Source: an uncultured virus (IMG/VR IMGVR_UViG_3300020469_000045) (lineage: Duplodnaviria > Heunggongvirae > Uroviricota > Caudoviricetes). Taken from it: a stretch of DNA of 64,000 nucleotides. The notes under the pieces were generated by a model. That model was not told the DNA's origin. It did not search any database and saw only the letters and a program-made list of their open reading frames with translations. The first letter of the stretch is position 1. Each line of letters starts with the position of its first letter. This document shows, in pieces, positions 3,011 to 61,794 of the stretch. The position numbers were made by a program, and so were the translations under genes. Location of the stretch: the IMG/VR virus record IMGVR_UViG_3300020469_000045; one strand, 5' to 3'.

Positions 3011-3159
3011 TGGACAATGACTTGCTTTTAGGCTTAGGTATTAATCTTTTGTTTTTATTAGGTCTAGTAAGTTTGAAACTGCACGCTGATAGAAGAGTTA
3101 AAAGAAATATGAAAGCTTATTTAAAATATTTAAAAGAAAAAAGGAAATACGATGTATGA
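3010..3159 (+). CDS. Small membrane protein (49 aa)
   Basis: MDNDLLLGLGINLLFLLGLVSLKL...NMKAYLKYLK; homolog at 60880..61035. Confidence 0.65.
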   Translation: MDNDLLLGLGINLLFLLGLVSLKLHADRRVKRNMKAYLKYLKEKRKYDV

Positions 3160-3920: not shown

Positions 3921-4443
3921 AAGAAAAAGAGGTAGACCCTCTAATGCAGAATTAGCAGAAAGAAAAAAAGCAAAAGACAAAGATTTAGCTTTGATAATAA
4001 GTATGTTTGTTGGAATGTTTCTTATATTTTCTTTATGTATAAATATTGCTTTAGCTAGTGAAATGACATTTAAGTTTAAATCTCCTAGCTTTTCAGGTTT
4101 AAATACTTCGCAACATTATTTAACAATAGAAAATCAAGAGCATACAAGATATAAGACTTTGGAAGAAGAAGTAGAAGCTTTAGTAGAACAAGCTGAAAGA
4201 GATGAACAGAATACGACAACAGCAAGGTTTATAAGAAATTTTGAAACTAGAGTTTATGCTAAATTATCACAACAACTTGTAGAAAAGTTATTTGGTGATA
4301 TTGCACAAGATAATGGAACAATAGAATTAGAAGGGAATACTATTGACTATAAGGTTGATGAAACTAATATAACACTTACAGTTACAAATGAAGCTGATAA
4401 AAAAACAGTTATTACTTTTCCTCTCAATAGTTTTACTTTCTAG
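3901..4443 (+). CDS. csgF: Curli assembly protein CsgF-like, with N-terminal AT-hook-like extension
   Basis: After signal/TM segment, SEMTFKFKSPSFSG resembles the CsgF mature N-terminus (MTFQFRNPNFGG); adjacent to csgG. Confidence 0.8.
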   Translation: MTKEKIKRKRGRPSNAELAERKKAKDKDLALIISMFVGMFLIFSLCINIALASEMTFKFKSPSFSGLNTSQHYLTIENQEHTRYKTLEEEVEALVEQAERDEQNTTTARFIRNFETRVYAKLSQQLVEKLFGDIAQDNGTIELEGNTIDYKVDETNITLTVTNEADKKTVITFPLNSFTF

Positions 4444-5191
4444 CTGTACTTTATTTTATGACGATGCTTTGCCTAATCAAGAGATTTCAAAGTATCCTCA
4501 AAGAATTAGCGTTGTAAATAATAAAATTATTGAAACTCTTCCTGCTAAAACAAAACCTGTAATAGCTGTTTATCCTTCTTCTTTTACAGACCAAACAGGA
4601 CAAAGAAGAAGTAATAATAGTTTTGCAACTTTCAGCACAGCAGTTACACAAGCTCCTTATGTACTGCTAATAAAAACATTAAAAGCAGTTTCAGATGGTA
4701 ATTTTTTTGAAGTTGTTGAAAGAGTTGGTTTAGATAATCTCACAAAAGAAAGACAACTTATTAGAAGCACAAGAGAATCTTTTGATGACCCACAAAAATT
4801 AAAACCTTTAATGTTTGCTGGTTTAATAATGGAAGGCGCAATTATAGGCTATGAAACAAATACAAGAAGCGGTGGAAGAGGAGCTAGATTACTAGGCATT
4901 GGAGCTTCTAAAGAATATAAACAAGATACAGTAACATTATCTTTAAGAACAGTATCAGTATTAACAGGCAGAATATTAATGGAAGTTACAATATCAAAAA
5001 GTATTTTAAGTGTAGGTACAAATCAAGATGGTTTTAGATTTTTACAAAATAGAACCGAACTTATAGAAATAGAAAATGGCGATGTAGAAAATGAAAGCGT
5101 AACGATAGCTTTGCAAGCAGCTATAGAAGAAGCAATATTACAAACCATAGAAAAAGGAATTACAAAAAACTATTGGAGTTATAAAAAATGA
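4388..5191 (+). CDS. csgG: Curli secretion channel CsgG-like lipoprotein
   Basis: Lipobox LLSSC; IAVY..FTDQTGQR..FSTAVTQ..VVERVGLDNLTKERQLIRS..EGAIIGYETN motifs. Confidence 0.9.
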   Translation: MKLIKKQLLLFLSIVLLSSCTLFYDDALPNQEISKYPQRISVVNNKIIETLPAKTKPVIAVYPSSFTDQTGQRRSNNSFATFSTAVTQAPYVLLIKTLKAVSDGNFFEVVERVGLDNLTKERQLIRSTRESFDDPQKLKPLMFAGLIMEGAIIGYETNTRSGGRGARLLGIGASKEYKQDTVTLSLRTVSVLTGRILMEVTISKSILSVGTNQDGFRFLQNRTELIEIENGDVENESVTIALQAAIEEAILQTIEKGITKNYWSYKK

Positions 5192-5895
5192 TAAAAATAT
5201 TACTAGTTATATTTTTGTTTTCAATAAATATTTTTGTTGCAGATAACGAAATATCTATTGACCAAACAGGAGCAACAGCTAATCTTGACATAGAACAATT
5301 AGGTTCTGGTAACTTAATTGGTGGTGCAACTGCAGCAGCAGGTTCTATGACAGCTTTAGATTTAGATGGAGCTACAATGACCTTAGATATAAATCAGTTA
5401 GGAAATTCTAATTTATTTAAAGGTGATATATATGCGGATAGCTATACAGGATTTTTTGAATTTACAGGAGATTCTAATACTTTCAATATACAAACTGACC
5501 CTAACAATACTTATAGCGCAGATAGTTCTAATGTAAATGTACAGGTATCAGGTTCTTCAAACACTTTTACTTATACTCAAGCTACAGCAGCTATGGCTTC
5601 TACGCTTGATTTAGATTGGACAATTAATGGTTCTAATAACACAATAACATCTGCAATAGACCAAGATTTAGCCACTAACTATATGAACATAAGTGGCTCA
5701 GATAACACAGTTACATTTGATGGAGATGGTTATCAAGGTGCATACTTTCATATGACACATACTGGAGGCTCAAGAACAATCAATGTTACACAACAAAGTA
5801 CACTTGATAATGACTGGCTTAAGATTACTTCTGCTGGTTCTAGTGGTACTTTCTGTGTCAATCAAAACGACCAAGGCACAAGCACAAGTTGTTGA
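5188..5895 (+). CDS. Curlin-like beta-repeat secreted protein (CsgA/CsgB-like)
   Basis: Signal peptide; repeats such as IEQLGSGN, INQLGNSN, VSGSSN, INGSNN, ISGSDN; follows csgG. Confidence 0.65.
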   Translation: MIKILLVIFLFSINIFVADNEISIDQTGATANLDIEQLGSGNLIGGATAAAGSMTALDLDGATMTLDINQLGNSNLFKGDIYADSYTGFFEFTGDSNTFNIQTDPNNTYSADSSNVNVQVSGSSNTFTYTQATAAMASTLDLDWTINGSNNTITSAIDQDLATNYMNISGSDNTVTFDGDGYQGAYFHMTHTGGSRTINVTQQSTLDNDWLKITSAGSSGTFCVNQNDQGTSTSC

Positions 5896-29733: not shown

Positions 29734-29804
29734 ATACTAGGTAGTATGTACTAAGTAATTTATTTAGGAAGTATATACATTAGTAAGTATATACTAAGTA
29801 TATA
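29731..29804. repeat. AT-rich AGTATATAC/TACTA iteron-like cluster; candidate replication origin
   Basis: tagatactaggtagtatgtactaagta...aagtatatacattagtaagtatatactaagtatata directly upstream of the primase-helicase. Confidence 0.45.
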
Positions 29805-29813
29805 GGAGGAAAA

Positions 29814-31577
29814 ATGATTAGCCAAGAATTAAATGAAAAATTAGACCGGCATACGTCAGGTCTGAGTCACGGACAAAGAAAAATCTCATGTCCGAATTGC
29901 CAAGATAAGAGAACAAAAAACAAACATGACACACCATTGAGCGTAAAGATTGACGAATACAAAGTCGTTTACCATTGTCATCATTGCAACATCAAGGGAG
30001 TTATAAACAGATACCAAAGTGCTATCAAAAAGGGAGGAGTTATGAAAGTAGTTAAGGCAGAAAAGCCACAGAAGAAAATAGTTTTAGCAGATAAGCAAGA
30101 AGAGAAAGCAAACAAGTGGTTGCTTGATAGAAAGATTAGTTTAGAAACAGCAGATAAATTTCGTGTAGCACGGGAAAAGAGAAAATATTTACCGGTAATA
30201 GGTTTCTCTTTCTACAATCCTGACGGAGAAGTTGAAGCTGTGAAGTTCAGGAAAGCCAATGGCGACAAGGATTTTTGGTGGGAGAACAATGCAAAAAGGT
30301 TTTGGGGAGAGCATGAATTCGATAGCAACAAAGAAACTATAGAGGATACAGTTGTTATTACCGAAGGGGAAATGGACGTATTAGCTATAGCAGAAGCTTT
30401 CAAAGACTACAACATAGCTGTTTACTCTGTGCCAAATGGAAGTCCAAACAAGATTACTGAGGGTAAGGTTGACCCAAGCGAGGACGGAAGGTTTGCTTAT
30501 GTGTGGGAAGATAGAGATAAGTTCCTTGATGTGAAGAAAGTTATCTTAGCTACTGACCAAGACTCAGCCGGAGATGTATTGACCCATGAGTTGAGCCGTA
30601 GGATAGGGAAAGCAAAGTGCTATCGCATGGATTACAAAGGATACAAGGACGCAAATGAATTGCTTATTGAGACAGACGAGGAGACAGTACGTAAGCAAGT
30701 GATTAATGCAGAGCCAATACCTTTGCATGGTCTAAACGATATAAGTTTTTACACAGATGAATTCCAAAGTTTGTATGATGAAGGCAAACCTCAGGGCATA
30801 AACACCGGATATGAGTCTGTTGATAAGGTATTTAATCTACAAACCGGATTGCTTTATGTAGTGACCGGCTATGCCGGAGAAGGTAAGAGTGCTTTCATAG
30901 ACCAATTAGTAGTCAATGCCGGTAAGAATTACAATTGGAAAACTTGTTATGCTAGTTTCGAGAAAAACCCTAGCTATCATTCGGTACAGTTAGCACAAAT
31001 AATAACCGGTAAACCTTTCTTTAAAACCAATGGGCATGAGCGTATGAGCCAAGAGGAGAAGGACGAAGCAGAGGCATGGATAGGAGAACACGTACTGTTC
31101 CAAGACTATTTAGACGGAGGGTTGCCAACGATTGAGAACGTGCTTGAGAAGTTTCATCATTCCATAATGAGAAACTCAGTAAAGATTTGTGTGATTGACC
31201 CCTTTAATTTTATCCATACTGATAGGACTAGCGGTCTAGAAACCCACATGATTTCAGATATGTTAAGCAAAGTTCAATTGTTTTGTAAGCAACATGACGT
31301 ATTGTGTATCTTCATAGCACACCCACAGAAACCACAAGACAGAAGTAAAAAGAATGTCTGTAACCTCATGGATATATCAGGCAGTATCTCGTGGAGTACG
31401 AAGGCAGATGTAGGCTTGACAGTATACAGAGGGTCGGATAATGTAGAAGTCCATTGTACCAAAGCGAGGTGGAATTGGAACGCACAGTTAGGCAAGGCAG
31501 ACTTATCATTCAATCCAACCAATGGAAGATACTCTGAAACTCAAGAAGAAACTGACGACTACGATTGGGATTTCTAA
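29814..31577 (+). CDS. Bifunctional primase-helicase (T7 gp4/Twinkle-like)
   Basis: Zn finger CPNC/CHHC, TOPRIM ITEGEMD..ATDQDSAG..KDANE, Walker A GYAGEGKS, IAHPQK, ISGS. Confidence 0.92.
   Translation: MISQELNEKLDRHTSGLSHGQRKISCPNCQDKRTKNKHDTPLSVKIDEYKVVYHCHHCNIKGVINRYQSAIKKGGVMKVVKAEKPQKKIVLADKQEEKANKWLLDRKISLETADKFRVAREKRKYLPVIGFSFYNPDGEVEAVKFRKANGDKDFWWENNAKRFWGEHEFDSNKETIEDTVVITEGEMDVLAIAEAFKDYNIAVYSVPNGSPNKITEGKVDPSEDGRFAYVWEDRDKFLDVKKVILATDQDSAGDVLTHELSRRIGKAKCYRMDYKGYKDANELLIETDEETVRKQVINAEPIPLHGLNDISFYTDEFQSLYDEGKPQGINTGYESVDKVFNLQTGLLYVVTGYAGEGKSAFIDQLVVNAGKNYNWKTCYASFEKNPSYHSVQLAQIITGKPFFKTNGHERMSQEEKDEAEAWIGEHVLFQDYLDGGLPTIENVLEKFHHSIMRNSVKICVIDPFNFIHTDRTSGLETHMISDMLSKVQLFCKQHDVLCIFIAHPQKPQDRSKKNVCNLMDISGSISWSTKADVGLTVYRGSDNVEVHCTKARWNWNAQLGKADLSFNPTNGRYSETQEETDDYDWDF
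30178..30209. promoter_or_regulatory. Palindromic operator-like motif copy (intragenic)
   Basis: AGAGAAAATATTTACCGGTAATAGGTTTCTCT. Confidence 0.5.
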
Positions 31578-32079
31578 AGAGGAAGTCTACGTCAATGATG
31601 TAGGCAATCCTTACTTACACAAGAGACACAAAGTCCAAGTCCAAAAGATAGACAACTCTCGCATAGGTCAGGCGATTGTCTTTGACCAACACATGATAGA
31701 CAAGCTTTATATCCAAGATTATCTGAACGAAAGACAACACATGGTGTGTGATAAATACCTTAATCTGTTGACCAAGTCAGGCTGTTTTGCGTCAGCTCCA
31801 CCCTCCATGGAGAAAATATTTACTAGTAATTACTTTCTGCAAAGGGCAATGCCACGCTCCATTGTACTTTCTCCCCCTGTGAAACAACTTCAGGAGTTAT
31901 GTGGAAATGAAAAAGAGAAAGCGTTCTATAAAATAATGACCGGTAATCCTAAAAGAATTACCGAGTCAGAATATAATGTGATTGTTGATTGTGCCGAAGC
32001 TTTACTTCAACTGTGGTATGTCAACGAGACTAGTCCGGTTTCGTTATTTCAGAGAGCCTTTCTAAAGGAGACTTCATAG
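31522..32079 (+). CDS. Hypothetical protein
   Basis: 185-aa ORF after the helicase. Confidence 0.65.
   Translation: MEDTLKLKKKLTTTIGISKEEVYVNDVGNPYLHKRHKVQVQKIDNSRIGQAIVFDQHMIDKLYIQDYLNERQHMVCDKYLNLLTKSGCFASAPPSMEKIFTSNYFLQRAMPRSIVLSPPVKQLQELCGNEKEKAFYKIMTGNPKRITESEYNVIVDCAEALLQLWYVNETSPVSLFQRAFLKETS
31811..31838. promoter_or_regulatory. Palindromic operator-like motif copy (intragenic)
   Basis: AGAAAATATTTACTAGTAATTACTTTCT. Confidence 0.55.
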
Positions 32080-32311: not shown

Positions 32312-32601
32312 TAGGTATCCTCACTTGTAATTTTATCTTCTACTTCTGCTATCGCTATGCTTTCTTTACCCAAGGTATAGTATCCATTCTCGGCAAGAGA
32401 ATTCATTGCGTTGTGATACGATTGCTCGTCATACCTAAGTAATGGCTCTACTAATAAAAGTTTAAATGCAAACTTACTAGCCTCCTCATAGGTATCAAAC
32501 GTCCACACTTTATATTTCCAATCCCCAAAACTTTTCTGAGAAGACTTAACAAAAGGCTCAGGGATAGTTAACTCAAAGGTGTGTCTGACAACTGCATACA
32601 T
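32311..32601 (-). CDS. Hypothetical protein, probably leaderless
   Basis: ATG 7 nt downstream of the extended -10 TGATATAAT (32608-32616). Confidence 0.65.
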   Translation of the reverse strand: MYAVVRHTFELTIPEPFVKSSQKSFGDWKYKVWTFDTYEEASKFAFKLLLVEPLLRYDEQSYHNAMNSLAENGYYTLGKESIAIAEVEDKITSEDT

Positions 32602-32639
32602 CAGATGATTATATCATATAGATAGCAAGGGACTAGCAT

Positions 32640-32703
32640 AAAAAAAAGGAGACAGACTTAATAGATTACTTTGGAGAATTATCTATGGCTCAAGTCTGCC
32701 TCC
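32640..32703 (-). terminator. Intrinsic terminator of the candidate sRNA
   Basis: GGAGGCAGACTT...AAGTCTGTCTCC-T8 on the minus strand; G-U pair only on this strand. Confidence 0.7.
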
Positions 32704-32787
32704 AATCTTATTAAACTTCAAAGACTTTTAGCCTAAGCCTTTGATTTCTTAGGAGGTTGTTCACGCTATGAAAGAACATGAACAATT
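32640..32787 (-). ncRNA. Candidate ~150-nt trans-acting anti-Shine-Dalgarno small RNA
   Basis: Own promoter; three hairpins (32757-32785, 32718-32744, 32648-32703) plus U8 tail; single-stranded linker CCUCCUAAGAAAU. Confidence 0.65.
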
Positions 32788-32793
32788 ACTTTT

Positions 32794-32823
32794 ATTATAT
32801 AGCATAGTGATATGACATGACAA
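32794..32823 (-). promoter_or_regulatory. Sigma70-like promoter of the candidate sRNA
   Basis: TTGTCA-18 bp-TATAAT on the minus strand. Confidence 0.65.
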
Positions 32824-32910: not shown

Positions 32911-32936
32911 AAAATATTTCCTAGTAAATACTTTCT
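32911..32936. promoter_or_regulatory. Palindromic operator-like motif copy
   Basis: AAAATATTTCCTAGTAAATACTTTCT. Confidence 0.6.
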
Positions 32937-33017
32937 TCACAAGGGATTGTCATAAGATAAAGTAATATGAGGGATTACAAACCAAAAAAATGTCATCATG
33001 TTTAGAAATTTTGAGCC

Positions 33018-33064
33018 AAAAAAAAACCGAGACTATGCAGTAAATTAATACCACATAGCCTCGG
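33018..33064 (-). terminator. Intrinsic terminator ending the leftward 33-39 kb operon
   Basis: CCGAGGCTATGTGGTA...TACTGCATAGTCTCGG-T9 just after the stop of 33071..33640. Confidence 0.8.
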
Positions 33065-33070
33065 CTAATT

Positions 33071-33640
33071 TTAAGCAGACTGTTTTATATTTTTTAATCT
33101 ATATCTAATACTTTTCTCAAACTGTTCAGTCGGAGTATACATATTGCTATGATGTAAAAAATTATCTAGAACTTTCAAATCTTCTTCCGTTCCAAACTTG
33201 TCAATCCACTTTAGAAACAACTCAGCAATAGGAGAATGAGTTATTGTGAAGTGAGTATTGCTATAGCGAAACAACTCAATATCTTTTTTGTTCTTTTTAT
33301 TATTCAAGAACTTGTGATACTTCCTGTCTATCTGTGCAATAGAAAGGTCAGAGTCATAACAACCGGCTTGTCTTATCATTGCGAAGTGACGAAAGACCAT
33401 TCTGAAAGACATAGGTTTATCGGAACGAGACGTGAACTTTGAAACCTCACTAGCGATTTCAAACTCTCCACTTCTGAAGTCGTCCTTGAACACAAAGTAT
33501 TTCCCATAAGGCATTGACTCTGACCACATGACTTCACAAACCTGAGGAATTAACTCGGCAAAGCTTTCGCCATGGATAATACCGGCTCTGACATTCAACC
33601 CACTACGAGGGTAATACTTAAATCTAAGTAGTCTTTTCAT
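33071..33640 (-). CDS. Hypothetical early protein
   Basis: SD GGAGGT; 189 aa. Confidence 0.7.
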   Translation of the reverse strand: MKRLLRFKYYPRSGLNVRAGIIHGESFAELIPQVCEVMWSESMPYGKYFVFKDDFRSGEFEIASEVSKFTSRSDKPMSFRMVFRHFAMIRQAGCYDSDLSIAQIDRKYHKFLNNKKNKKDIELFRYSNTHFTITHSPIAELFLKWIDKFGTEEDLKVLDNFLHHSNMYTPTEQFEKSIRYRLKNIKQSA

Positions 33641-33860
33641 ACTCCACCTCCGAGACTTTTACTTTTCCTTTGTCGAATGAATCCAAAGCTTGATTGCAAA
33701 TCTCTATCACTTTTTCATCACTAGCACACTTGATTAAGTCCTCAAGAATTGTTGCTATTGCTAGAGCCTCTTCCACCGGAAGTGTGAGCAGAACTTCAAC
33801 CTTCCTTGCAGAGTGCAACTCCTTAGCAAAAGTCATTCTTTCTTTAAAGTATTTACTCAT
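33624..33860 (-). CDS. Hypothetical early protein
   Basis: SD AGGAGGT; coupled. Confidence 0.7.
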   Translation of the reverse strand: MSKYFKERMTFAKELHSARKVEVLLTLPVEEALAIATILEDLIKCASDEKVIEICNQALDSFDKGKVKVSEVEYEKTT

Positions 33861-34162
33861 GCTACACCTCCTGACTTTCTGTTGTCTTTGATAGCAACAA
33901 CCAAGTCTGATAAATGGTCGGCTCCTTGTTGAAAGTCGTCAATGCTTTCCACGGACAACCTAAGAATAGAGTCAAGATAGTCTCGAATAGACTCAACCTC
34001 ACTTAGACTTATAGCGTCTAGTCTTTGGACATTGTCTACTCGATAAGACAATTGTTTACTTAACCTCTGAATGATATCAACTGCTGATACCAAGTCGTTG
34101 ACTATATCTTTCAGAACTATACGTTCATCTATATATAACATCTTTTCTTTAACTTCTGTCAT
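33857..34162 (-). CDS. Hypothetical early protein (helical)
   Basis: SD AGGAGGT; coupled. Confidence 0.7.
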   Translation of the reverse strand: MTEVKEKMLYIDERIVLKDIVNDLVSAVDIIQRLSKQLSYRVDNVQRLDAISLSEVESIRDYLDSILRLSVESIDDFQQGADHLSDLVVAIKDNRKSGGVA

Positions 34163-34887
34163 GCTACACCTCCTTGCATTTCAAATTGTTTTTTAGTCGG
34201 ATACGTTAACTGATACTTCTTAGCACAATGCTTTCCATATCCGTACGCTTTCGAGATATCGTCAGACAATCTCCTCTTGCAGAAAGAACATTGACCGGTC
34301 AACTGTCCGAACTCTCGGACAACTTTCTCAGGGTCAAGGGCAATTGCATTTAGAGTATTGACTGCTTCGTCTTTGATTGCTTGTTTCTCAAAGTCCAACT
34401 GAACATTAGAGTATCTAAAGTGAGGAAAGAACAATCCGTTCAAGTCCACCCTACCAAGATACTCTTTGCCATATTGAAAGTCAGGGTCACAACTGACGAG
34501 CAACTGCAACTGACCTTCAAACTTTGACTTGTCAGTAGCAACGTACATCTTCAGAAACCAATCAGCATTTCCGGAACTACCTCCGGCAATTGGAACTGAC
34601 ATAGCAACTCTGATAGATGAAAAGTTAGGAACTCTGTTTAGGAACTCCAACACTTTGCTTATCTCATTGACTTGAATAGTCTCTTTAGGTTTTGGAGGAG
34701 CAAGAACTTTGTCTCGTATCTTCGCAACCATAGTCCATTGTTTCTCGGACAAGTTACCCTTCATGTCTAATTGATGTCTGACACTTCTTAAAAAAGAAAC
34801 GTCCCATTTTGTGTGGTCGTCATGCTTACAGACCTCTGTAAACATTCCGTCTTTGGCTAACCACAACTGTAGTTTTAAATCTTCCAT
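34159..34887 (-). CDS. Early protein with C-terminal Zn-binding motif (DUF6011-like)
   Basis: GQCSFCKRRLSDDISKAYGYGKHCAKK; N-terminal LSEKQW motif; SD AGGAGGT. Confidence 0.7.
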   Translation of the reverse strand: MEDLKLQLWLAKDGMFTEVCKHDDHTKWDVSFLRSVRHQLDMKGNLSEKQWTMVAKIRDKVLAPPKPKETIQVNEISKVLEFLNRVPNFSSIRVAMSVPIAGGSSGNADWFLKMYVATDKSKFEGQLQLLVSCDPDFQYGKEYLGRVDLNGLFFPHFRYSNVQLDFEKQAIKDEAVNTLNAIALDPEKVVREFGQLTGQCSFCKRRLSDDISKAYGYGKHCAKKYQLTYPTKKQFEMQGGVA

Positions 34888-34914
34888 AGTACCTCCTATA
34901 AAGATTAAGTTAAT

Positions 34915-34972
34915 AAACTGATTTCATACTTTTGTAATCATTCAGACCAAGCACACACTTGATTATCAGTTT
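34915..34972 (-). ncRNA. Type III hammerhead ribozyme (HH-C)
   Basis: Minus: AAACUGA-UA|AUCAAG-UGUGUG-CUUGGU-CUGAAUGA-UUAC-AAAA-GUAU-GAAA-UCAGUUU; core has one extra A; predicted cut between 34964 and 34963. Confidence 0.8.
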
Positions 34973-35008
34973 TTTTAGAAGTGAAAATTTGCGTCCCGTG
35001 ACCAACAT

Positions 35009-35042
35009 TAGAGAAAATATTTACTAGTAAATACTTTCTCTA
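35009..35042. promoter_or_regulatory. Palindromic operator-like motif copy (best copy)
   Basis: TAGAGAAAATATTTACTAGTAAATACTTTCTCTA, further flanked by CGTGACC/GGTCACG. Confidence 0.65.
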
Positions 35043-35100
35043 CAAGGGTCACGAAACACAAACTGTTACACATGGTGTAAAACTTTCGGGGAAAAGGTGT

Positions 35101-36543
35101 TCACTTGATGAACACCCTCTCGCCAAAAGGCATATCCTTTTTTGGATTAGAGAAGCCGTAGCTACCTTCAACAGTAAAGACGTGAATGACCGGTAGATTG
35201 TCCGGCATAGGCTCGTCCAACTCTTCCATTTCAAAGTCGTCCTCTCCGTCCGAGAAGTGAATAAGCAAGTCGACCTCGTCTCTCTCTTCAAGCTTAGAAA
35301 GGAAAGCATTGAAACCGGCAACACCATAAGTACCACCGGAGCCATGACAAGGGAACGTATCTTTGTCCGGCATACAATCTCCTTGAGTCGTGTCGAACAA
35401 GTCGAAGTATTCTCCTTGCTCATTTCTAAAATGGTTAGAGGCATACCTTCCGACCCACAGTTTCTCAACTGCAAACTCCTCAAGCAACGTCATGGTTTCT
35501 GTAATGAATTCATCACGACACCATTCGGTACTGCCTGATACGTCATTGAGAATGACAACGTTTTTTATTTCGTTCTCACGTTTCTTTGACGGCAAGATTA
35601 GTCCGGAGTGTTGATACTTTTTATTGAGTCGAGCGTAAGACCTCTTGTTGGATTTACGAGAGGTTAGTATCTCTCTCAAGTAATCATTCCATGCAACCTG
35701 AGGTCTTTTGATTTCTCCGGCTCTGCCTCCAAGGTAGTCAACGTTGCCTGAGTCTCCTTTCATTCCTTCAAGTTTCTCTGCCATAAGAACTTGTTGGTCA
35801 AGTCTCGTCTGCTCCTCTCGTACTTCTTGAGGAGTGAGGTCTTGTCCTTCTTCGCCCTTCATGTCAATGACACCACCAACCGGCTGAGGTAAGTCGTCAA
35901 GATTGACTCCACCTTGTCCGGACATTTGTCCTTCGGCTTCGTCCTCGTCCTGACTTTCGCCCTGACCCTGACCCTGACCTTCGCCCTCGCCTGAATCAGA
36001 CTCGTCTTGCTCAGACTCGCCTTGCTCGTCCGACTCTTGACCTAGTCCTTTCTCAACCTGAGACTTTGCCTTCTCCAACTCCTCGTCATTCGCATACAAG
36101 AAGTCATAGATTGCATTAGCCGACCATGACTGATACTTCCTATCAAGTAGACCACCTTCCGGTAAATCTAAATTCAAGTCATACACAATGTATGAATTGA
36201 TTGCATAGTCAGTAGCAATGTTCCAAAGCTTAGGGTGTCTTTCAAGACCACCTTCGCACCTTCGTATATGGTGTCCCCAAACAACGTGAAGAGCCTCGTG
36301 AATTAAGACTCCTTTTATTTGGTCGAACTTCATAGACAAAGTGAAATCCGGAGAGTAAATAATACTCTTGCCGTCCGTAGCCATTGTCCCAATGGACTCG
36401 TCCTCTATGAGGTCAAGTCCTAAGAGAATAGAAGTCATGCCGGTAGCTGAGTCCATTAACTGTGACTTAGCTTTTGTTATGACTTGCTCTGCCGTTTGAC
36501 CCATATACTCAGGTCGTCTTTGTGCAACGTTGTACTCACTCAT
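35101..36543 (-). CDS. DUF2201-like metallopeptidase plus VWA domain protein
   Basis: TMATDG..HEALHVVWGH..WNIATDYAIN; acidic Q/E/G linker; MIDAS DVSGS; FSDG. Confidence 0.85.
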   Translation of the reverse strand: MSEYNVAQRRPEYMGQTAEQVITKAKSQLMDSATGMTSILLGLDLIEDESIGTMATDGKSIIYSPDFTLSMKFDQIKGVLIHEALHVVWGHHIRRCEGGLERHPKLWNIATDYAINSYIVYDLNLDLPEGGLLDRKYQSWSANAIYDFLYANDEELEKAKSQVEKGLGQESDEQGESEQDESDSGEGEGQGQGQGESQDEDEAEGQMSGQGGVNLDDLPQPVGGVIDMKGEEGQDLTPQEVREEQTRLDQQVLMAEKLEGMKGDSGNVDYLGGRAGEIKRPQVAWNDYLREILTSRKSNKRSYARLNKKYQHSGLILPSKKRENEIKNVVILNDVSGSTEWCRDEFITETMTLLEEFAVEKLWVGRYASNHFRNEQGEYFDLFDTTQGDCMPDKDTFPCHGSGGTYGVAGFNAFLSKLEERDEVDLLIHFSDGEDDFEMEELDEPMPDNLPVIHVFTVEGSYGFSNPKKDMPFGERVFIK

Positions 36544-37492
36544 TGTCGCCTCCCATTAGTCCACCGAAGATAGAGTCGTTGAGACTTTTCTTCGCTGTAG
36601 TTATTTCTTCTTTCATAGACTCTCGGTTTTCAACCGCAAGGTCGTCCTTGCCTTTGAGAGACTCTATGCCGTTTGATACTTTGGTTAAGGTCGCAGTCAC
36701 TTGAGATATCACACCGGACAATTTCTTACTGTTAAGAAGCTTGTCATTGATACTCTGAGCATTTTCAACTTTAGCCTTGAGGTTATCAAAGACTGCACGT
36801 TTAAAGAACGACCCTTTGTTGCCTTCCTTTTCCATTGCAACTAAGACATTGTCTAGAGCCTCAGTCAGTCCGGCTATTTGCTCTTTGGCAATCATGTTGT
36901 GAGTATCTTTGAAATTACTCGCAACTTGACTCTCAATCATTGAACGTTGCTCGGCTGACAATTGAACTCTAGCGTCATTAGAAAATGACACAGACTCGAA
37001 GGCTCCAAACTGTATTTCAAATTTGCACTTCGCTCTGAAAGTTTCTACATCATCATAGTTATTGATGTCGAAAGCTTCGCCCAATTTCTTCTTAGCATTT
37101 TCAATATGCCAATCATAATTTGAACAAAACGAGTCAACTGCTTTTTCAAACATTGCCTTGTGTTGCTTGTAGAGTTTCTCTAACTGAGTCACTTTGTCGT
37201 TAGGAATAATTCTCCATTGTGAAGAGTTAGTATCTCCGTCCGACCAAGGATAAGACAACGGCTTAAACACAGTCGTCTCAAACGCTACAAAGTATTTCCT
37301 AAAATAGGAATTGATTTTCTCCGGAAACAAATAGTCCGAAGCTGTGTGCATAGAAGGGTCAGAGTCAAACAACTTTGCTAACTCCTTCTTGCTCCTAGGA
37401 TTGACCTTTTGGTCAGAGGGTAAACCTCTGCGAAAGACCACCTTAACAAACGAGTCTGAAAAGACAGACTCTAACGTTTTATTTTTATTCAT
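36536..37492 (-). CDS. Hypothetical helical protein (DUF3150-like) in the AAA/VWA cluster
   Basis: Lies between AAA ATPase and VWA genes; PWSD...RIIP...KLGEAFDINNY; SD GGAGGT. Confidence 0.6.
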   Translation of the reverse strand: MNKNKTLESVFSDSFVKVVFRRGLPSDQKVNPRSKKELAKLFDSDPSMHTASDYLFPEKINSYFRKYFVAFETTVFKPLSYPWSDGDTNSSQWRIIPNDKVTQLEKLYKQHKAMFEKAVDSFCSNYDWHIENAKKKLGEAFDINNYDDVETFRAKCKFEIQFGAFESVSFSNDARVQLSAEQRSMIESQVASNFKDTHNMIAKEQIAGLTEALDNVLVAMEKEGNKGSFFKRAVFDNLKAKVENAQSINDKLLNSKKLSGVISQVTATLTKVSNGIESLKGKDDLAVENRESMKEEITTAKKSLNDSIFGGLMGGDNE

Positions 37493-37519
37493 TTATACCT
37501 CCATGAAATAAAAAATTTA

Positions 37520-37579
37520 ATAAACTGATTTCATACTCTCGTAATCGTCAGACCGAGTCACACTCGATTATCAGTTTAT
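37520..37579 (-). ncRNA. Type III hammerhead ribozyme (HH-B)
   Basis: Minus: AUAAACUGA-UA|AUCGAG-UGUGA-CUCGGU-CUGACGA-UUAC-GAGA-GUAU-GAAA-UCAGUUUAU; predicted cut between 37569 and 37568. Confidence 0.88.
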
Positions 37580-37585
37580 GGCAGC

Positions 37586-37620
37586 GAGAGAAAATATCTT
37601 ACTAGTAAAATATTTCTCTC
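37586..37620. promoter_or_regulatory. Palindromic operator-like motif copy
   Basis: GAGAGAAAATATCTTACTAGTAAAATATTTCTCTC. Confidence 0.6.
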
Positions 37621-37640
37621 ACTTCCAAAAAAACCAAGAC

Positions 37641-38747
37641 CTACAGAATTAGGTTTTGATTATCCACACGGAATTGTCCGAACGCCTTGCTCTTCTCCAA
37701 CTCCGGTCTTGCTCCAACACAAGAGCGAACGAAGTAGATACCGAACTCAGCCGTTGGGAACTTCTCAACATACTTGAGAGCATTTTCCCAATAGGAAACC
37801 AAGTCCTTGTCCTTGCACTCAGACAAGACCTTAACGAGTCCACAGCAAGTCGCATATTGAAGACCAACTCCTTCCGGAACTTCCACGTCCTCGCCACTCA
37901 CAATGTCGTCAAGGGACGGAACATTTTGCATGAGGTTAACGAACGTTAAGAACTCAGCCGTACTCTCTGAGCCGATACAACCACTCATAAGCTTTCCGAA
38001 CATTGAGTTAGTCAAATCGTTCTCAAATCTTTGAACTATCGGACTAGCCATTGACCAAGTCCTTGAGGAACTCTGACTCTCTTTCAACTTAGGGTCAAAG
38101 TGATTTAAGAACTGAGGCTGATAGTTTATGAACGAAGTTATCAGAGGGTGTACATCATTCTTCGTTGCCCACGCTAACCAAGAATTAGTATCGCCTTCCA
38201 CGTGCATTTCTATCACTCTGTCTAACAAGTGAGAGAGGATAGAATTTGCTCCGGCTCTATCGGTCTGTCTATTACCGGCTAAAACAATTTTAAATCCGTC
38301 AGAGATTTTTGTTTCGCCAATAATCCTTTCACGCACACCACGTCCGGCAATCTTTTGCATTTCCGGAGTAGCTTGTGCGAACTCGTCAAGAAACAAAACT
38401 CCACTTCCTGAGATAGGCAAGTTTTGTAATTGAGCGAGTCTTTGTACCGGCTCTCCTTCGACCATGTCGACCACCGGAACACCTCTCGTGTCCTCCGGCT
38501 CCAAGTCTGCAATCCTCAAGTCAATGAGAGAGAACTCGTCCTCGCTCGGATTTATTTTTCCGTAGACAAGCTTTCGACCATTAGCGAGAGTCTTAGCATA
38601 TTGTTCGACTAGAGAGGACTTACCGATACCTACTCCACCGAGTAAGCAAGGAACTAAGTCCGTTCCGTCTGCACTAACCATTGGAGTAATTTCCAACATA
38701 CCTTCGATAGCTTCCGAAGGAGTATAAGTTTTATCTTTGGCACTCAT
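37641..38747 (-). CDS. AAA+ ATPase (MoxR/CobS-like)
   Basis: Walker A GGVGIGKS, Walker B LFLDE, IVLAGNR..DRAG, SSRTW. Confidence 0.9.
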   Translation of the reverse strand: MSAKDKTYTPSEAIEGMLEITPMVSADGTDLVPCLLGGVGIGKSSLVEQYAKTLANGRKLVYGKINPSEDEFSLIDLRIADLEPEDTRGVPVVDMVEGEPVQRLAQLQNLPISGSGVLFLDEFAQATPEMQKIAGRGVRERIIGETKISDGFKIVLAGNRQTDRAGANSILSHLLDRVIEMHVEGDTNSWLAWATKNDVHPLITSFINYQPQFLNHFDPKLKESQSSSRTWSMASPIVQRFENDLTNSMFGKLMSGCIGSESTAEFLTFVNLMQNVPSLDDIVSGEDVEVPEGVGLQYATCCGLVKVLSECKDKDLVSYWENALKYVEKFPTAEFGIYFVRSCVGARPELEKSKAFGQFRVDNQNLIL

Positions 38748-38872
38748 TAGTACACCTCCTTAGATACGAGAATTTCATTGTCGAACTTCTCAAATTTAAA
38801 TTTCGCAATAGGTTTCTTTCTACTACGTCTGTTCAGTTTAGAGACATGAACGTCTGTCATTTGTATTTTCAT
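38747..38872 (-). CDS. Small basic protein (41 aa), first gene of the leftward operon
   Basis: MKIQMTDVHVSKLNRRSRKKPIAKFKFEKFDNEILVSKEVY*; SD AGGAGG; TAATG coupling to the ATPase. Confidence 0.75.
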   Translation of the reverse strand: MKIQMTDVHVSKLNRRSRKKPIAKFKFEKFDNEILVSKEVY

Positions 38873-38900
38873 ATTTCCTCCTAAGAAATATATTAAGTTA

Positions 38901-38949
38901 ACTGTTTCTGCTTTCGCTTCCTCAGACTAGGCACACACCTAGTGACAGT
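38901..38949 (-). ncRNA. Type III hammerhead ribozyme (HH-A)
   Basis: Minus: ACUG-UC|ACUAGG-UGUGUG-CCUAGU-CUGAGGA-AGC-GAAA-GCA-GAAA-CAGU; GUC triplet; predicted cut between 38944 and 38943. Confidence 0.85.
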
Positions 38950-39374
38950 AAGAAATTCGAAAGGGATAACAAAACGCTATCCCTCTCAAATAATTTGGTT
39001 AGGAATTTCTGTCGCAAAGAAAATTATTTAGGGTCTGTTTATTTAACATCAAGACTCGGTCTCGTTGGAGCAATTGCTGTCACTTTGCTTTCGAGACCTA
39101 CTGCTTTCGTATCTGTTTCAATACTCCATATAGCATTTAGGTAAGGGTGTTTGAGGTACGGCTAAAATTGTTCCACCAATTTATCATCACGACCTGACCT
39201 AGTTTTTGGGTAATAAAGAATACTAGGACGACCTCCACGGAGTCTGTACGAATAGACTACCGATAAAAATTAAAACTACTTTTCTATAGACACCTCCTCA
39301 AAAATTATGACGAGTTTGAGCCTCAAGTCCTTGCTTGATTTTTGGGTACAGAAAAACGTCATTGCCATAAGAGG

Positions 39375-39383
39375 ATTATAGCA
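39375..39383 (-). promoter_or_regulatory. Extended -10 promoter for the leftward operon
   Basis: TGCTATAAT on the minus strand; predicted +1 ~39368. Confidence 0.55.
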
Positions 39384-39438
39384 AAATGTACCCTTAAATA
39401 TACCTCTATTTAGCTATCAGTCTGTGGTCATTACGTGG

Positions 39439-39464
39439 GAAAAGGTTTACCGGTAAAATGTTTT
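39439..39464. promoter_or_regulatory. Palindromic operator-like motif copy at the terS start
   Basis: GAAAAGGTTTACCGGTAAAATGTTTT. Confidence 0.5.
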
Positions 39465-39970
39465 GTATGAGTGATGAGAAAAAACCCAACCTAAAAATAG
39501 TCGGCACGAAACCGAAACCAGAAACAGACCTTACTCCTAAACAGAGAGCCTTCATTGAAGAGATAGTAAAAGGTAAAACAACTTACAAAGAAGCATACGC
39601 AAAAGTCTATGACGTGAAGTTAAACAAGAACGGCTCCATTCCTAAATGGGTAAATGTAGAAGCTTCCAAGATGTTAGCTAACCCTAAGATTTCCCTAAGC
39701 ATACAACGTGCTATCAGTAAGCGAGAGGAGGGAGTAGTAGCTTCCTCTATCCGTACGAGGAGTTATGTTTTAGAAAGGCTCCATGCAGAGAGTCGAGGAG
39801 ACAACGAGGATTCTACTCCGGCAAGTAGGGTTAGGTCTTTGGAACTACTAGGAAAAACTTCCGGTATGTTTACCGATACAGTCGAAGTAAAAGAACAGAG
39901 AGACTCCTCAACAATTGAGGCAGAGATACTTAGACTGCTAGAGAACGAAGCAGTAGACGACCACCACTAA
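39458..39970 (+). CDS. terS: Terminase small subunit
   Basis: LTPKQRAFIEEI..YKEAY..ASKMLANPKI...RVRSLELLGKTSGMF; upstream of terL; likely start 39467. Confidence 0.85.
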   Translation: MFCMSDEKKPNLKIVGTKPKPETDLTPKQRAFIEEIVKGKTTYKEAYAKVYDVKLNKNGSIPKWVNVEASKMLANPKISLSIQRAISKREEGVVASSIRTRSYVLERLHAESRGDNEDSTPASRVRSLELLGKTSGMFTDTVEVKEQRDSSTIEAEILRLLENEAVDDHH

Positions 39971-44638: not shown

Positions 44639-45043
44639 ATGAGTGAAGTAAAACTAGAAAATATCCCAGACCCAGAGAGTGTAAAAGCTCCACCCGTAAA
44701 TGAAGATGTTAAGACACAGCTACCTGACCCTAAAGGTTGGAAGATATTAGTAGCTATGCCACAAGCAGATGAAAAGACGGAAGGTGGTATTATCAAAGCC
44801 TCACAAACAATCAAAGACGAAGAAGTATCTAATATATGTGGATATGTCTTAAAGATTGGACCTGAAGCTTATAAAGATGAACAAAGATTTCCTTCAGGAC
44901 CTTGGTGTCAAAAAGGAGATTGGGTAATCTTTAGAGCCTACTCAGGTACTCGTATGGTCATGTATGGACAAGAGTTTCGTTTAATTAATGACGATACTGT
45001 GGAAGCAGTCGTTGATGACCCAACAGGAGTAGTAAGAGCATGA
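44639..45043 (+). CDS. groES: Co-chaperonin GroES-like
   Basis: PKGWKILV...EKTEGGII...VLKIGPEAY...GDWVIF..YSG...LINDD. Confidence 0.85.
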   Translation: MSEVKLENIPDPESVKAPPVNEDVKTQLPDPKGWKILVAMPQADEKTEGGIIKASQTIKDEEVSNICGYVLKIGPEAYKDEQRFPSGPWCQKGDWVIFRAYSGTRMVMYGQEFRLINDDTVEAVVDDPTGVVRA

Positions 45044-55487: not shown

Positions 55488-56396
55488 ATGGTAGCAAGTG
55501 TAAGAAAAGATATAGATGAATTTGGAAAAGAATTTTATCGTCTAAGGTTTGAAAGCACATACAATCATCAAGAAATAAATTATATTATTGAATGGAGTAA
55601 ACAGGACTCGGCTTTGCTTGTTGATGAATTTGGAAACTTTGATAAAGAAGGAGCAGAAACTTTAGAACGTTGGCATAAAGAAGCTGAAGCATATAAACAC
55701 GCTATAGGAAGAAACGACTCTTTTTTATTTAGAACAGATATATATGATGAAGTATACGTCAATCAAAAACTTGTAAGAAAAGATTGGAATATTGCAACAG
55801 GAGATGGTCCGGCTCTTTTAGAAAAAGTAAAAGCTGCATTTCCTAAAGAAGAAGAAATATGGGAGTCTGGTGCTTTAAATGTTATAGGAACTTACTATGC
55901 TCCTGATGGTGCACCTTTAAGACCTCCATACAAAAATACTAATTCTATTAGTATGTACCATGTACAAAGGGAGCCTAGTTCTTATCTTTTACAAAGTTAT
56001 GGTATAGACCCTAGCACTCATACATGGTGTCCTTGGTACGGATTAAAATACGATTTAGAAACTAAAGAGCGTATGTTAAAGATTGTTTATTATGGAATAA
56101 AACAAACTGAAAACATTCCTAGACCTGAAGGTTTGCCTGAAGATATAAACCCTTATTGGTATTTTTTTGCTGATATTTATCATGAAGATGGCAGTAAGTC
56201 TCAAGAAAGAGATATATTTTTATTTGCAACTGAAGAAATATTTCGTCCTTGGTGTGAAAAATATGGACATACTTATCCCATACCTGATGAAAAACTAAGA
56301 GACGATATATGGTGTTATGGAATAGTTTATGACTTTGAAACACTAGAAGTAAAACAAGTTAAAGGTTATATAAGATATAGAGTAGATGGAATATAA
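55488..56396 (+). CDS. Hypothetical protein, probably leaderless moron
   Basis: Extended -10 TGTTATAAT at 55473-55481; ATG 7 nt later. Confidence 0.65.
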   Translation: MVASVRKDIDEFGKEFYRLRFESTYNHQEINYIIEWSKQDSALLVDEFGNFDKEGAETLERWHKEAEAYKHAIGRNDSFLFRTDIYDEVYVNQKLVRKDWNIATGDGPALLEKVKAAFPKEEEIWESGALNVIGTYYAPDGAPLRPPYKNTNSISMYHVQREPSSYLLQSYGIDPSTHTWCPWYGLKYDLETKERMLKIVYYGIKQTENIPRPEGLPEDINPYWYFFADIYHEDGSKSQERDIFLFATEEIFRPWCEKYGHTYPIPDEKLRDDIWCYGIVYDFETLEVKQVKGYIRYRVDGI

Positions 56397-57099
56397 TTTT
56401 TTAAAAGCAGTAGAAAAAGCTGATGATAAGTTTTTTGATACTATAGAAAAAGAAAAAATTAATTTTTTACAAAACAGATTTCAAGAGCAGGGATTTGTTT
56501 TAGTTAAAAACTTTTTATCTGAAGAAGTTGCAGACTTAGTTAACGAAAGCTTTGAAATACATTACGCTAAAGCAGAATATATAGAAAAATATTTTGAAAA
56601 TACAATACCAATTAGTTTAACAAAACCTAATATGCCTTCTCCTTTTTATGGAAAGTTTGGAAAGATAGATAAAAAAATGGGATTTGCTAATAGAGATTTG
56701 CATAGTTATGCTTATAGTGTTGGAGAGGCTTTGCTAAAAAAGAAAAAAGATTTTATAGAAAAGATTTCACAACAAGAGTTAGATTTTACAAATTCTTTTT
56801 GTAGAAAATATACTGAAGGAAGTAGTTTAGGAAAACATAAAGACAGACCTGCACTTCAAGTTTCTGCTACTATTTGTCTGGGTGGAGAAAAGTGGGAGAT
56901 ATTTATAAAAGATAAGTCAGATAATACACATGGCATAACTATGAGTGCAGGTGATGCAATAGTTTATTCAGGCACAGAGCTTGAACATTGGAGAGAAAAA
57001 TTAGATAAAGGATATGTTAATATGTGCTTTATACATTATTGCAAAAAAGGCTCAGAATATAAATTAGACGGAAGAGAATTTATAGGACAGCCAAGATAA
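56386..57099 (+). CDS. 2OG-Fe(II) oxygenase
   Basis: RKY..GSSLGKHKDRPALQVSATICL...GDAIVYSG..LEHWRE. Confidence 0.8.
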   Translation: MEYNFLKAVEKADDKFFDTIEKEKINFLQNRFQEQGFVLVKNFLSEEVADLVNESFEIHYAKAEYIEKYFENTIPISLTKPNMPSPFYGKFGKIDKKMGFANRDLHSYAYSVGEALLKKKKDFIEKISQQELDFTNSFCRKYTEGSSLGKHKDRPALQVSATICLGGEKWEIFIKDKSDNTHGITMSAGDAIVYSGTELEHWREKLDKGYVNMCFIHYCKKGSEYKLDGREFIGQPR

Positions 57100-57111
57100 A
57101 CGGGGTTAAAT

Positions 57112-57711
57112 ATGTTTGGGAAAGTAGGAATGTTTCATGGAGAGCAAGGTTTGCCTCGTGATTTATGTGACGAATTGAATGAAGAAATAATGAATAAAGT
57201 TCCACCTACAGATGGAGAGATAGGAGCAGGAACAGAGGGTATAAAAGAAACTAATACTAGAAATTCAATTTTACGTTGGGTCACATCAGAAACACCTCAA
57301 CTCTGGGATAAAACACTTAACTTAATAATGCCTTATGTTGTAGGCACAAATAGAACAAACTTTGGTGTTGATATTTCTGGTGGGTGTAATGAAATACAGC
57401 ATACAGAATATCAAGAAGGACAGCATTATACTTGGCATATGGACTCAGATTTTGCACCTTTAGAAGTTGTAAAGAGTCGTATAGCATATGATAGAAAGTT
57501 AAGTGTCACAATACAACTTACGCACGAAGACAATTATGATGGAGGAGATTTAGAAATTTTTGAAAGAGAATTAAATTTACCAAAACATTTAGTAAGACAA
57601 CAAGGTACTGTAATTATATTTCCTTCTTTCATACAACATCGTGTGACACCTGTCACTTCGGGAATAAGACATTCATTGGTAACTTGGATAGAAGGTACGC
57701 CATGGAGATAA
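57112..57711 (+). CDS. 2OG-Fe(II) oxygenase (prolyl-hydroxylase/PKHD-like)
   Basis: QHTEY...HYTWHMD...RKLSVTIQL...YDGGDL...FPSF..HRVTPVTSGIRHSLVTW. Confidence 0.9.
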   Translation: MFGKVGMFHGEQGLPRDLCDELNEEIMNKVPPTDGEIGAGTEGIKETNTRNSILRWVTSETPQLWDKTLNLIMPYVVGTNRTNFGVDISGGCNEIQHTEYQEGQHYTWHMDSDFAPLEVVKSRIAYDRKLSVTIQLTHEDNYDGGDLEIFERELNLPKHLVRQQGTVIIFPSFIQHRVTPVTSGIRHSLVTWIEGTPWR

Positions 57712-60883: not shown

Positions 60884-61035
60884 ATAGCGAGTTAGTTTTT
60901 GTAATAGCTTTAAATGTAATATTCTTAATAGGATTATTAGGATTAAAATTTTATTTGAAAAGAAAAGCTGAAAAAAATATGAAAGCTTATCTTAGATATT
61001 TAAGACACAAGAGAAAATATAATGTACGAATATAA
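60880..61035 (+). CDS. Small membrane protein (homolog of 3010..3159), TTG start
   Basis: ...LNVIFLIGLLGLK...NMKAYLRYLR. Confidence 0.6.
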   Translation: MNSELVFVIALNVIFLIGLLGLKFYLKRKAEKNMKAYLRYLRHKRKYNVRI

Positions 61036-61444
61036 ATGCACAATAGATAGAGTAGTAGATGGAGATACTGTAGACGCTACTCTTGATTTAGGATTTTCTG
61101 TTTTATACAAAAGTAGAGTAAGGCTTTTTGGCATAGATACTCCTGAGTCTAGAACAAGAAATAAAGATGAAAAAGCTAGAGGTAAACTAGCTGCTAAATT
61201 TTTAAGTGATGCTATAGATAAAGCAGATACTGTAGTTATACGTACAGAACTAAGAGACTCTAGAGGAAAGTTTGGCAGAGTTTTAGGCACAATTGTTTGT
61301 GATGATATAGATATAAATAATTCTATGATAGAAAATTTTATGGCAGCAAAATATTTTGGTCAAAACAAAACTGCAATAGAAGCTGTACATCAATCTAATA
61401 GAACTAAACTTATTGAGTTAGGTTTGTTTGAGCCTGTTGAATAA
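61022..61444 (+). CDS. Thermonuclease (SNase-like), second copy
   Basis: VVDGDTVD...RLFGIDTPES. Confidence 0.85.
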   Translation: MYEYKCTIDRVVDGDTVDATLDLGFSVLYKSRVRLFGIDTPESRTRNKDEKARGKLAAKFLSDAIDKADTVVIRTELRDSRGKFGRVLGTIVCDDIDINNSMIENFMAAKYFGQNKTAIEAVHQSNRTKLIELGLFEPVE

Positions 61445-61794
61445 TGGACGATATTGTAAAGTTAATAACTGAGTTAGGATTTCCTGTTGCTGCAGCATTA
61501 GGACTAGGTGTATTTGTTTGGAAACTAATTAATAGAATTATAGACGGCATGGAATCTAAGATTGATGTTGTTGATGATAAAGTAAATGAACAATTAAAAG
61601 CTATGGAAGGTAGGCTAGATGCTAAATTAGAAGCACAACATGGAATATTGATTGCTTTGATAGACAGAGTTAGAAGTGTAGATAATGAAATTATTAGACA
61701 AGATACTTTACTTAAGACTATGTTAGGTGTACCTAATCTAGTACAGAACGATAAAATAGCAAAGGCAGATAGAGATGACCAAAGAAAAGATTAA
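61444..61794 (+). CDS. Single-TM holin-like protein, second copy
   Basis: Nearly identical in protein sequence to 3558..3920. Confidence 0.55.
   Translation: MDDIVKLITELGFPVAAALGLGVFVWKLINRIIDGMESKIDVVDDKVNEQLKAMEGRLDAKLEAQHGILIALIDRVRSVDNEIIRQDTLLKTMLGVPNLVQNDKIAKADRDDQRKD

Follow-up and report, generated by a model that had tools for sequence, protein, structure and literature searches.

A candidate trans-acting anti-Shine-Dalgarno RNA of uncultured marine phages that co-varies with mRNA leaders downstream of hammerhead-shaped elements

The 64,000-nucleotide stretch of DNA analysed here (an uncultured Caudoviricetes virus, IMG/VR IMGVR_UViG_3300020469_000045; referred to as the window) carries on its minus strand what is very likely a real and conserved small RNA (sRNA) gene, whose product probably acts in trans as a phage-encoded anti-Shine-Dalgarno (anti-SD) RNA that represses hammerhead-generated early mRNA leaders and the primase mRNA by SD occlusion. 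The preliminary description of this locus had proposed a stand-alone trans-acting sRNA directed at the hammerhead operon. The stand-alone minus-strand gene and the exposed anti-SD arm were recovered, and the target set needed widening: the gene for a 41-aa protein that had been singled out is matched, but so are all leaders downstream of hammerheads, through a second arm 3' of hairpin 2, and the ribosome binding site (RBS) of a primase/helicase gene. As far as can be judged from sequence comparison, it is the behaviour of the RNA across relatives, not the 13-nt match to the 41-aa gene, that carries the case for an sRNA.

The stretch represents a tailed phage genome of approximately 57.9 kb, as the pattern of open reading frames (ORFs) recurs at an offset of 57,874, and genes for a terminase, portal, capsid, tail fibres, a primase/helicase and a Sak-like recombinase were identified. 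The terminase and the capsid are 53–58% and 61–64% identical, respectively, to those of the pelagiphages HTVC023P/027P and of phage DSL-LC04, whose genomes are similar in size, whereas the best rows for the primase and the AAA ATPase among 50,697 phage records were only about 27–31% identical. In the same 50,697 records, no close cultured match was found for the replication and early genes, and blastn returned no DNA match to the sRNA locus. An integrase was not found among the 74 ORFs scanned against Pfam and/or PHROGs. A scan of prokaryote genomes for relatives gave two loci, a single 3.6-kb contig in a metagenome-assembled genome and one that was 28% identical, neither of which was taken as a host. 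The end of the window repeats its start (61022–63769 versus 3152–5895, offset 57,874) with only 2103/2800 ungapped identities; this non-identical second copy possibly reflects a strain chimera or indels. Auxiliary genes at 44639–45043 and 56386–57711 code for a GroES-like co-chaperonin and two proteins of the 2OG-Fe(II) oxygenase type.

The predicted sRNA of about 148 nt (32640–32787, minus strand; 5' end placed from the -10 box) is preceded by a σ70-type promoter, TTGTCA-18-TATAAT (32794–32823, minus strand; -35 at 32823–32818, -10 at 32799–32794), as the preliminary description had stated. With 11/12 consensus bases, this was the best of 34 promoter-like sites between 28000 and 44000, a class that was not enriched as such (38 in shuffled sequences), and it was conserved in all four close variants of the locus. 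The three hairpins described earlier were also borne out: the RNA folds with -46.6 kcal/mol (z = -5.98; as stable in 0/200 shuffles), while the opposite strand folds far less well (z = -2.15). Hairpin 1 (32757–32785), which would protect the 5' end and is the same in 4/4 close variants, is followed by arm 1 (32744–32756), consisting of a CCUCC anti-SD seed (32756–32752) and a clade-specific extension, by hairpin 2 (32718–32744), which loops out of the predicted duplexes, and by arm 2 (AAGUUUAAUAAG, 32704–32718), which in cofolds pairs with the U/A-rich stretch that immediately follows hammerheads B and C. The CCUCC has an unpaired probability of 0.96, and 12/13 nt of arm 1 are unpaired, the last U closing hairpin 2. 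Hairpin 3 (32703–32648) and the expected U8 tail (32647–32640) together form an intrinsic terminator (32640–32703) that a simple terminator scan did not list, probably because the stem of hairpin 3 is long and interrupted. The same scan placed a terminator at 33025–33066 (minus strand) that ends the upstream operon and separates the sRNA gene from it. In line with the earlier reading, no minus-strand ORF of at least 30 aa overlaps the sRNA. Rfam searches of the window and 13 related loci gave nothing at gathering score and chance hits only at E values up to 10. In the RNA runs (4 of 18 examined; contigs only), depth was low across the whole 12 kb and 0–0.64 in the two sRNA bins, in libraries that lose short RNAs and may contain DNA. 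The loop of hairpin 3 (32665–32685, minus strand), which contains UUCUCCAA, is invariant in the four close variants. In the L206 clade (L206, L219, L245), its motif is found again downstream of the sRNA, in a hairpin of its own approximately 55–110 nt before the downstream gene for a 96-aa protein. The loop might act as a further seed, for SDs of the GGAGA type. A GGAGG in the 5' arm of hairpin 3 could fold back onto the seed.

To place this locus among its relatives, marine metagenome and IMG/VR contigs were used, from which 200 orientable loci were obtained; 90 of these reach the downstream 96-aa or 93-aa gene and 61 are non-redundant. Taking one member each at 90% identity of the 96-aa protein gave 26 clusters, the most distant of which have AAA ATPases about 40–46% identical to that of the studied genome. 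A syntenic sRNA candidate was picked, by a loose score, in 60/61 non-redundant loci. In the census, terminators were defined without reference to CCUCC, as a guard against circularity. Of the terminators that precede the 96-aa gene, the last one had CCUCC within the 130 nt ahead of it in 23/26 representatives (0.8 expected), which made CCUCC the most enriched pentamer. A terminator was found on the sense strand of the sRNA in 23/26 representatives and on the opposite strand in 0/26, the terminator upstream of the sRNA gene was present in 26/26, and a promoter-like pattern preceded the sRNA in 13 representatives (other strand 0/26; background 5.6%) and was not found in the other 13. The family RNAs measure roughly 85 to 150 nt and have little in common beyond their layout, in which a 5' hairpin is followed by CCUCC, then by a variable arm and finally by a terminator; the L206/L219 clade has no hairpin 2, and its arm 1 runs directly into arm 2. 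CCUCC was unpaired with a mean probability of 0.77, compared to 0.41 for the whole RNA (above 0.7 in 16/26 and below 0.7 in 10/26), and in most relatives only the CCUCC is free, the next 8 nt being paired (mean unpaired probability 0.24). In the four close variants, the three helices are kept (94.5% paired); a single compensatory pair was found in these helices, which is not above shuffles. A 15-nt pattern scan of viral contigs matched at least 117 loci, with two true relatives among the matches listed and the others due to chance. At the level of sequence, the locus has the features by which a trans-acting base-pairing sRNA gene is recognised, namely a predicted promoter and terminator of its own and no conserved ORF.

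Upstream of the sRNA lies a leftward operon of eight genes (33071–38872, minus strand) coding for the 41-aa protein, a MoxR-type AAA ATPase, a DUF3150-like protein (Pfam score below cut-off), a DUF2201 metallopeptidase, a DUF6011 protein and three others. All eight have GGAGG, compared to 8/78 of the other called genes of the window, and the same bias was seen family-wide (130/183 operon genes versus 53/376 genes outside). The order of the ATPase, DUF3150-like and metallopeptidase trio (35101–38747, minus strand) is conserved across the family. A pattern search of the window detected three hammerhead-shaped elements on the minus strand and none on the plus strand: A (38900–38950, type III layout, predicted cut after 38944), B (37524–37575, cut after 37569) and C (34917–34970, one extra core base, cut after 34964). 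All three fit a type III hammerhead, with the core CUGA-N-GA and GAAA, an NUH triplet, three stems and an open stem III, and each is followed by an SD and a start codon within about 35 nt. Neither at gathering score nor at E values up to 10 did the Rfam hammerhead model match the window or any of 13 related loci; the pattern is conserved in relatives with varying stems, and the 42 loci spanning the operon contain 1–5 hammerheads each, mostly two or three. B and C are repeats that are 86% identical to each other. Several hammerheads of L177, L197, L206, L210 and L147 contain additional hairpins within their stem II region, and in some leaders (L237, L249, L254) the SD is buried in a small hairpin.

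Four target sites were predicted in the window. The leader and SD of the 41-aa gene (site 38877–38889; gene 38872–38747, minus strand) would form 12 contiguous pairs over the SD with a net energy of -13.5 kcal/mol, displacing a weak leader hairpin (-5.3). The leaders of the DUF3150-like gene (37493–37523, minus strand; 23 pairs in three segments, net -8.4 kcal/mol) and of the DUF6011 gene (34888–34916, minus strand; 22 pairs, net -6.2 kcal/mol) follow hammerheads B and C; in their predicted duplexes the seed lies on the SD and arm 2 just after the ribozyme, with hairpin 2 looped out. The fourth site is the SD of the primase/helicase gene (site 29803–29809, plus strand; gene 29814–31577), with 7 predicted pairs and a net energy of -9.3 kcal/mol; this match is modest in the studied genome and stronger in relatives. 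The 96-aa gene downstream of the sRNA starts 6 nt after a TATAAT box (32601–32613, minus strand), and its start lies 5–7 nt after the -10 box in 17/26 representatives, predicting a leaderless mRNA that would escape the sRNA. For the gene after it, language-model features alone (score 0.92, 163/256 shared) point to a likeness to Arc/ribbon-helix-helix regulators, which we regard as a lead.

The complement that had first drawn attention to the locus (32744–32756 versus 38889–38877) is exact over 13 nt and exceeds in length every other match of the locus to the window. By itself it is not telling: 994 of 2000 shuffled RNAs had a 13-nt complement somewhere in the genome, and by raw duplex energy the hammerhead A leader ranks second, not first, among 86 genes of the window. 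With CCUCC fixed and the flanks randomized, at least 8 extra pairs with any of 18 GGAGG leaders arose in 548 of 100000 trials (0.55%). What makes the match notable is therefore not its length but its place and, above all, how it behaves across relatives. Likewise, the coordinates given for five further SDs of the operon were right, but their match to the ACCUCCU core is trivial because any strong SD complements CCUCC.

Co-variation of the arm with its target RBS in related phages, proposed as a check, was assessed by folding every arm against every leader set in 58 phages with 135 leaders downstream of hammerheads (L233, which has no terminator, and L148 and L163, which have no hammerhead in the available sequence, were left out; L278, L146 and L147, without a clear terminator, were kept). 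Across the 26 clusters, hammerhead leaders paired better with their own sRNA (-20.3 kcal/mol) than with foreign ones (-16.2 kcal/mol; z -8.4 with row and column means removed), and the own sRNA ranked first in a median of 15/26 clusters. The advantage persisted with coarser clustering (14 clusters, z -6.3; 6 clusters, p at most 0.004) and when full-length sRNAs were paired with whole predicted 3' cleavage products and unfolding was charged (own -10.7 versus foreign -7.0, z -8.4), although in L147 the own pairs were weak once folding was charged (-1.3 and -3.4). By class, the own match was strongest for hammerhead leaders (z -8.1), followed by primase/helicase (z -5.8, 22 clusters), other operon genes (z -3.3) and other GGAGG genes (z -1.9). 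Most other genes of the operon had been listed as matching the core; those that no hammerhead precedes are only weakly matched. Contributions to the signal come from the bases 5' of CCUCC (z -6.4), from those immediately 3' (z -3.3) and from the distal arm taken without the SD (z about -3.0 for hammerhead leaders, about -1 for other classes), while a control piece further 5' of the arm gave no own-pairing advantage. An apparent own match of genes outside the operon (z -5.9) was discarded as a separate class, since it was traced to the primase leader and one antisense self-hit and fell to z -1.9 after their removal; it was from tracing this anomaly that the unexpected primase/helicase target emerged. 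Where the sRNA calls for A after GGAGG, A is found in 8/8 hammerhead and 5/5 primase leaders, and where it calls for U, U is found in 32/44 and 9/10, respectively; the A state may be a single clade event. The arm complement of L206 shares a 12-nt U/A-rich run with its hammerhead leaders, plus GGAGGUG at the SD, eleven bases around the SD match the arm in L221, and L210 has two 12-nt runs.

The clusters are related to each other, and a tree of the AAA ATPase with 39 rows was used to draw independent pairs. In a first test, own pairing was better in 11/17 pairs (sign test p 0.17, Wilcoxon 0.006), many of which are near-identical in the pairing region. A second pairing rule, picked afterwards and using one tip per cluster, gave a median of 9/11 (Wilcoxon p 0.012, worst 0.051; sign test p 0.033, worst 0.11), with 8/11 for other operon genes (0.05) and 4/8 for other genes (0.27); for primase, own pairing was better in 6/8 independent pairs (Wilcoxon 0.016, sign test p 0.14). 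Own pairing thus holds up on the tree in weaker form than across clusters, and there is moderate tree-based support for a predicted accessible seed that is complementary to distant mRNA sites and co-varies with them.

Taken together, the layout suggests that the sRNA is transcribed alone from a host-type promoter and bounded by its 5' hairpin and terminator. Its exposed CCUCC would seed pairing on GGAGG, and clade-specific flanks are predicted to extend the duplex and to give specificity: in the studied genome, the 13-nt arm would bind the hammerhead A leader, and the two arms bridging hairpin 2 would bind the B and C leaders. Judging from known hammerhead chemistry, self-cleavage would split the 6-kb message into units, and the main targets would be cistrons that start a transcript de novo, namely those just 3' of hammerheads and the primase/helicase gene. 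A duplex over the SD would block initiation, as C4 and NfeR1 suggest (see below). Genes outside the operon, most of which have no GGAGG, and the downstream gene, leaderless in 17/26 representatives, would escape. Its most likely role is to restrain early functions and DNA replication or to set a threshold for them. Within this role, a timer acting in the lytic cycle is a tentative suggestion that falls somewhat short of an even chance, and the maintenance of a quiescent or immune state is a less probable one. More speculative still, and in our view doubtful, is an RNA-only immunity or life-cycle switch in which the sRNA would read single-stranded 'addresses' exposed after cleavage beside the SDs, and the primase RBS, silencing early genes and replication together. 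As the arm and the addresses drift together, each clade would then silence its own kin, whether the resident genome or a superinfecting sibling, and not distant relatives. If true, this would amount to RNA-encoded immunity groups in a widespread marine phage family that has no recognisable integrase or classical repressor, and would give clustered phage hammerheads their long-missing purpose.

Pairing with the same leaders could instead serve mainly to tune hammerhead folding or cleavage, or to protect or destabilise the cut fragments. Arm 2 is predicted to bind directly 3' of the ribozyme core, where it overlaps stem III of B and C by the three outermost bases, and the distal arm on its own covaries with hammerhead leaders and not with other classes. 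However, the sole invariant element of the family is an anti-SD pentamer, and the primase leader, which has no hammerhead, also covaries, so that we consider this reading unlikely. That the pentamer is the only invariant part, and corresponds to the core anti-SD in the available part of PMC10783764, would also fit a general anti-SD RNA aimed at strong host mRNAs in host take-over, or a mimic of the 16S 3' tail, with phage leaders as side targets; at least 298/376 outside genes need no GGAGG, by which late genes would be spared. Yet in each clade the flanks follow the leaders of the phage itself, and the strongest matches are to operon and primase genes, precisely those that a host-directed RNA should avoid, making such an activity rather improbable.

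The likeness between arm and leaders might also have arisen at the DNA level, by inverted copying or conversion or through a shared protein-binding site, with the RNA, if made, not regulating by pairing. A mirror test, in which G-U pairs were swapped for A-C, gave the same result either way (z -8.3 versus -8.2), indicating that the signal is Watson-Crick and does not distinguish selection for RNA pairing from a shared sequence of the DNA, and the 86% identity of hammerheads B and C shows that copying occurs in the region. Against this, the arm matches several distinct leaders, encoded on either strand, by short interrupted stretches that surround an exposed seed, and these matches are kept between promoter and terminator across 26 clusters; copying accounts for how a match arose, not for why it was retained, and we judge this origin to be distinctly improbable. 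The alternative offered by the preliminary description itself, translation from the plus strand, assigns the plus-strand GGAGG to a small gene (MKEHEQLLLLYSIVI) as its RBS and sees no more than terminators in the hairpins. There is indeed a GGAGG 11 nt ahead of an ATG and a 15-codon ORF. This ORF is frameshifted to 13 codons in L005/L008 and different or lost in L009 and L241, however, and the ORF after the opposite-strand GGAGG is absent in 10/26 representatives and 2–43 codons long, of unrelated length, in 16/26. As all 26 also lack a promoter pattern or terminator on the plus strand, the peptide reading is largely refuted and we regard it as highly improbable.

The candidate anti-SD sRNA would work like P1 C4 or NfeR1 and is homologous to neither. 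According to the available parts of the sources cited in this paragraph and the next, C4 blocks the RBS of ant (PMC12197685), and C4 sequence differences underlie P1/P7 heteroimmunity (PMC12197685; PMC8198154). Like the studied sRNA, C4 is phage-encoded and uses short exposed segments that pair around the RBS of phage mRNAs to block translation; it is encoded, however, in the c4-icd-ant operon that it controls and targets an antirepressor, whereas the studied sRNA is a separate gene 2–6 kb from several targets on both strands, predicted to be ribozyme-generated leaders and primase. No match to icd or an antirepressor was obtained among the sRNA neighbours in Pfam/PHROGs scans, nor did the Rfam covariance model of C4 match the window or 13 related loci. 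NfeR1 (alpha-r14) and AbcR1/2 of alphaproteobacteria also present an unpaired CCUCC-type seed among diverging stems for multi-target SD occlusion, and the anti-SD seeds of NfeR1 repress reporters (PMC10746234). These are host chromosomal RNAs with CCUCCUCCC in the loops of three hairpins, whereas the studied sRNA presents a single CCUCC, placed in a linker between hairpins, whose flanks change together with the phage leaders; it gave no Rfam match.

Clustered phage hammerheads, each before a gene, were described by Perreault et al. (2011, PMC3088659) to cut polycistronic 2-kb transcripts in vitro. These prophage hammerheads resemble the operon studied here in that several lie in one polycistronic phage transcript, but the available text describes no partner sRNA for them, whereas here each is followed by an SD leader matched by the sRNA. 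Lambda PreS and VP882 VpdS are likewise stand-alone phage sRNAs and steer the lytic cycle (PMC12197685), but they are Hfq-dependent and act largely on host RNAs, PreS raising dnaN, while the studied sRNA is predicted to repress the phage's own primase. A list of phage ncRNA candidates (PMC10914365) makes no link between hammerheads and sRNAs in its available part. Our literature search, which covered main texts and few subscription journals, found no description of this sRNA family or of an sRNA targeting ribozyme-generated phage leaders; the supplementary hammerhead lists of PMC3088659 and the 38 uncharacterised sRNAs of PMC12197685 could bear on novelty. The locus adds an sRNA family that Rfam does not contain and that came to light by synteny, not sequence, among uncultured phages abundant in the sea; it also provides a predicted case of a phage restraining its own primase by RNA. 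Why phages put hammerheads before genes is given as an open question (PMC3088659; PMC6765202), for which the locus offers a concrete and cheap test, as dozens of natural sRNA-leader pairs of differing sequence are ready swap controls; these orthogonal pairs may moreover serve as compact translational switches.

Two further elements were observed around the operon and the sRNA gene. On the minus strand at 39276–39383, an extended -10 operon promoter is followed 6 nt later by a 30-codon ORF that is retained in close relatives, then by a conserved non-coding leader of about 330 nt and a terminator-like hairpin (38991–38955) abutting hammerhead A; this is a possible attenuator or further RNA. Moreover, a palindrome around TTACTAGTAA or TTACCGGTAA recurs at 30178–30209, 31809–31840, 32911–32939, 35010–35041, 37599–37619 and 39436–39467, ahead of the sRNA promoter, of terS and of hammerheads B and C and also inside two genes. 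It has the appearance of an operator, which the 93-aa Arc-like protein (32311–32030) may bind, and a related motif lies within -400 to +500 of the sRNA in 23/26 representatives.
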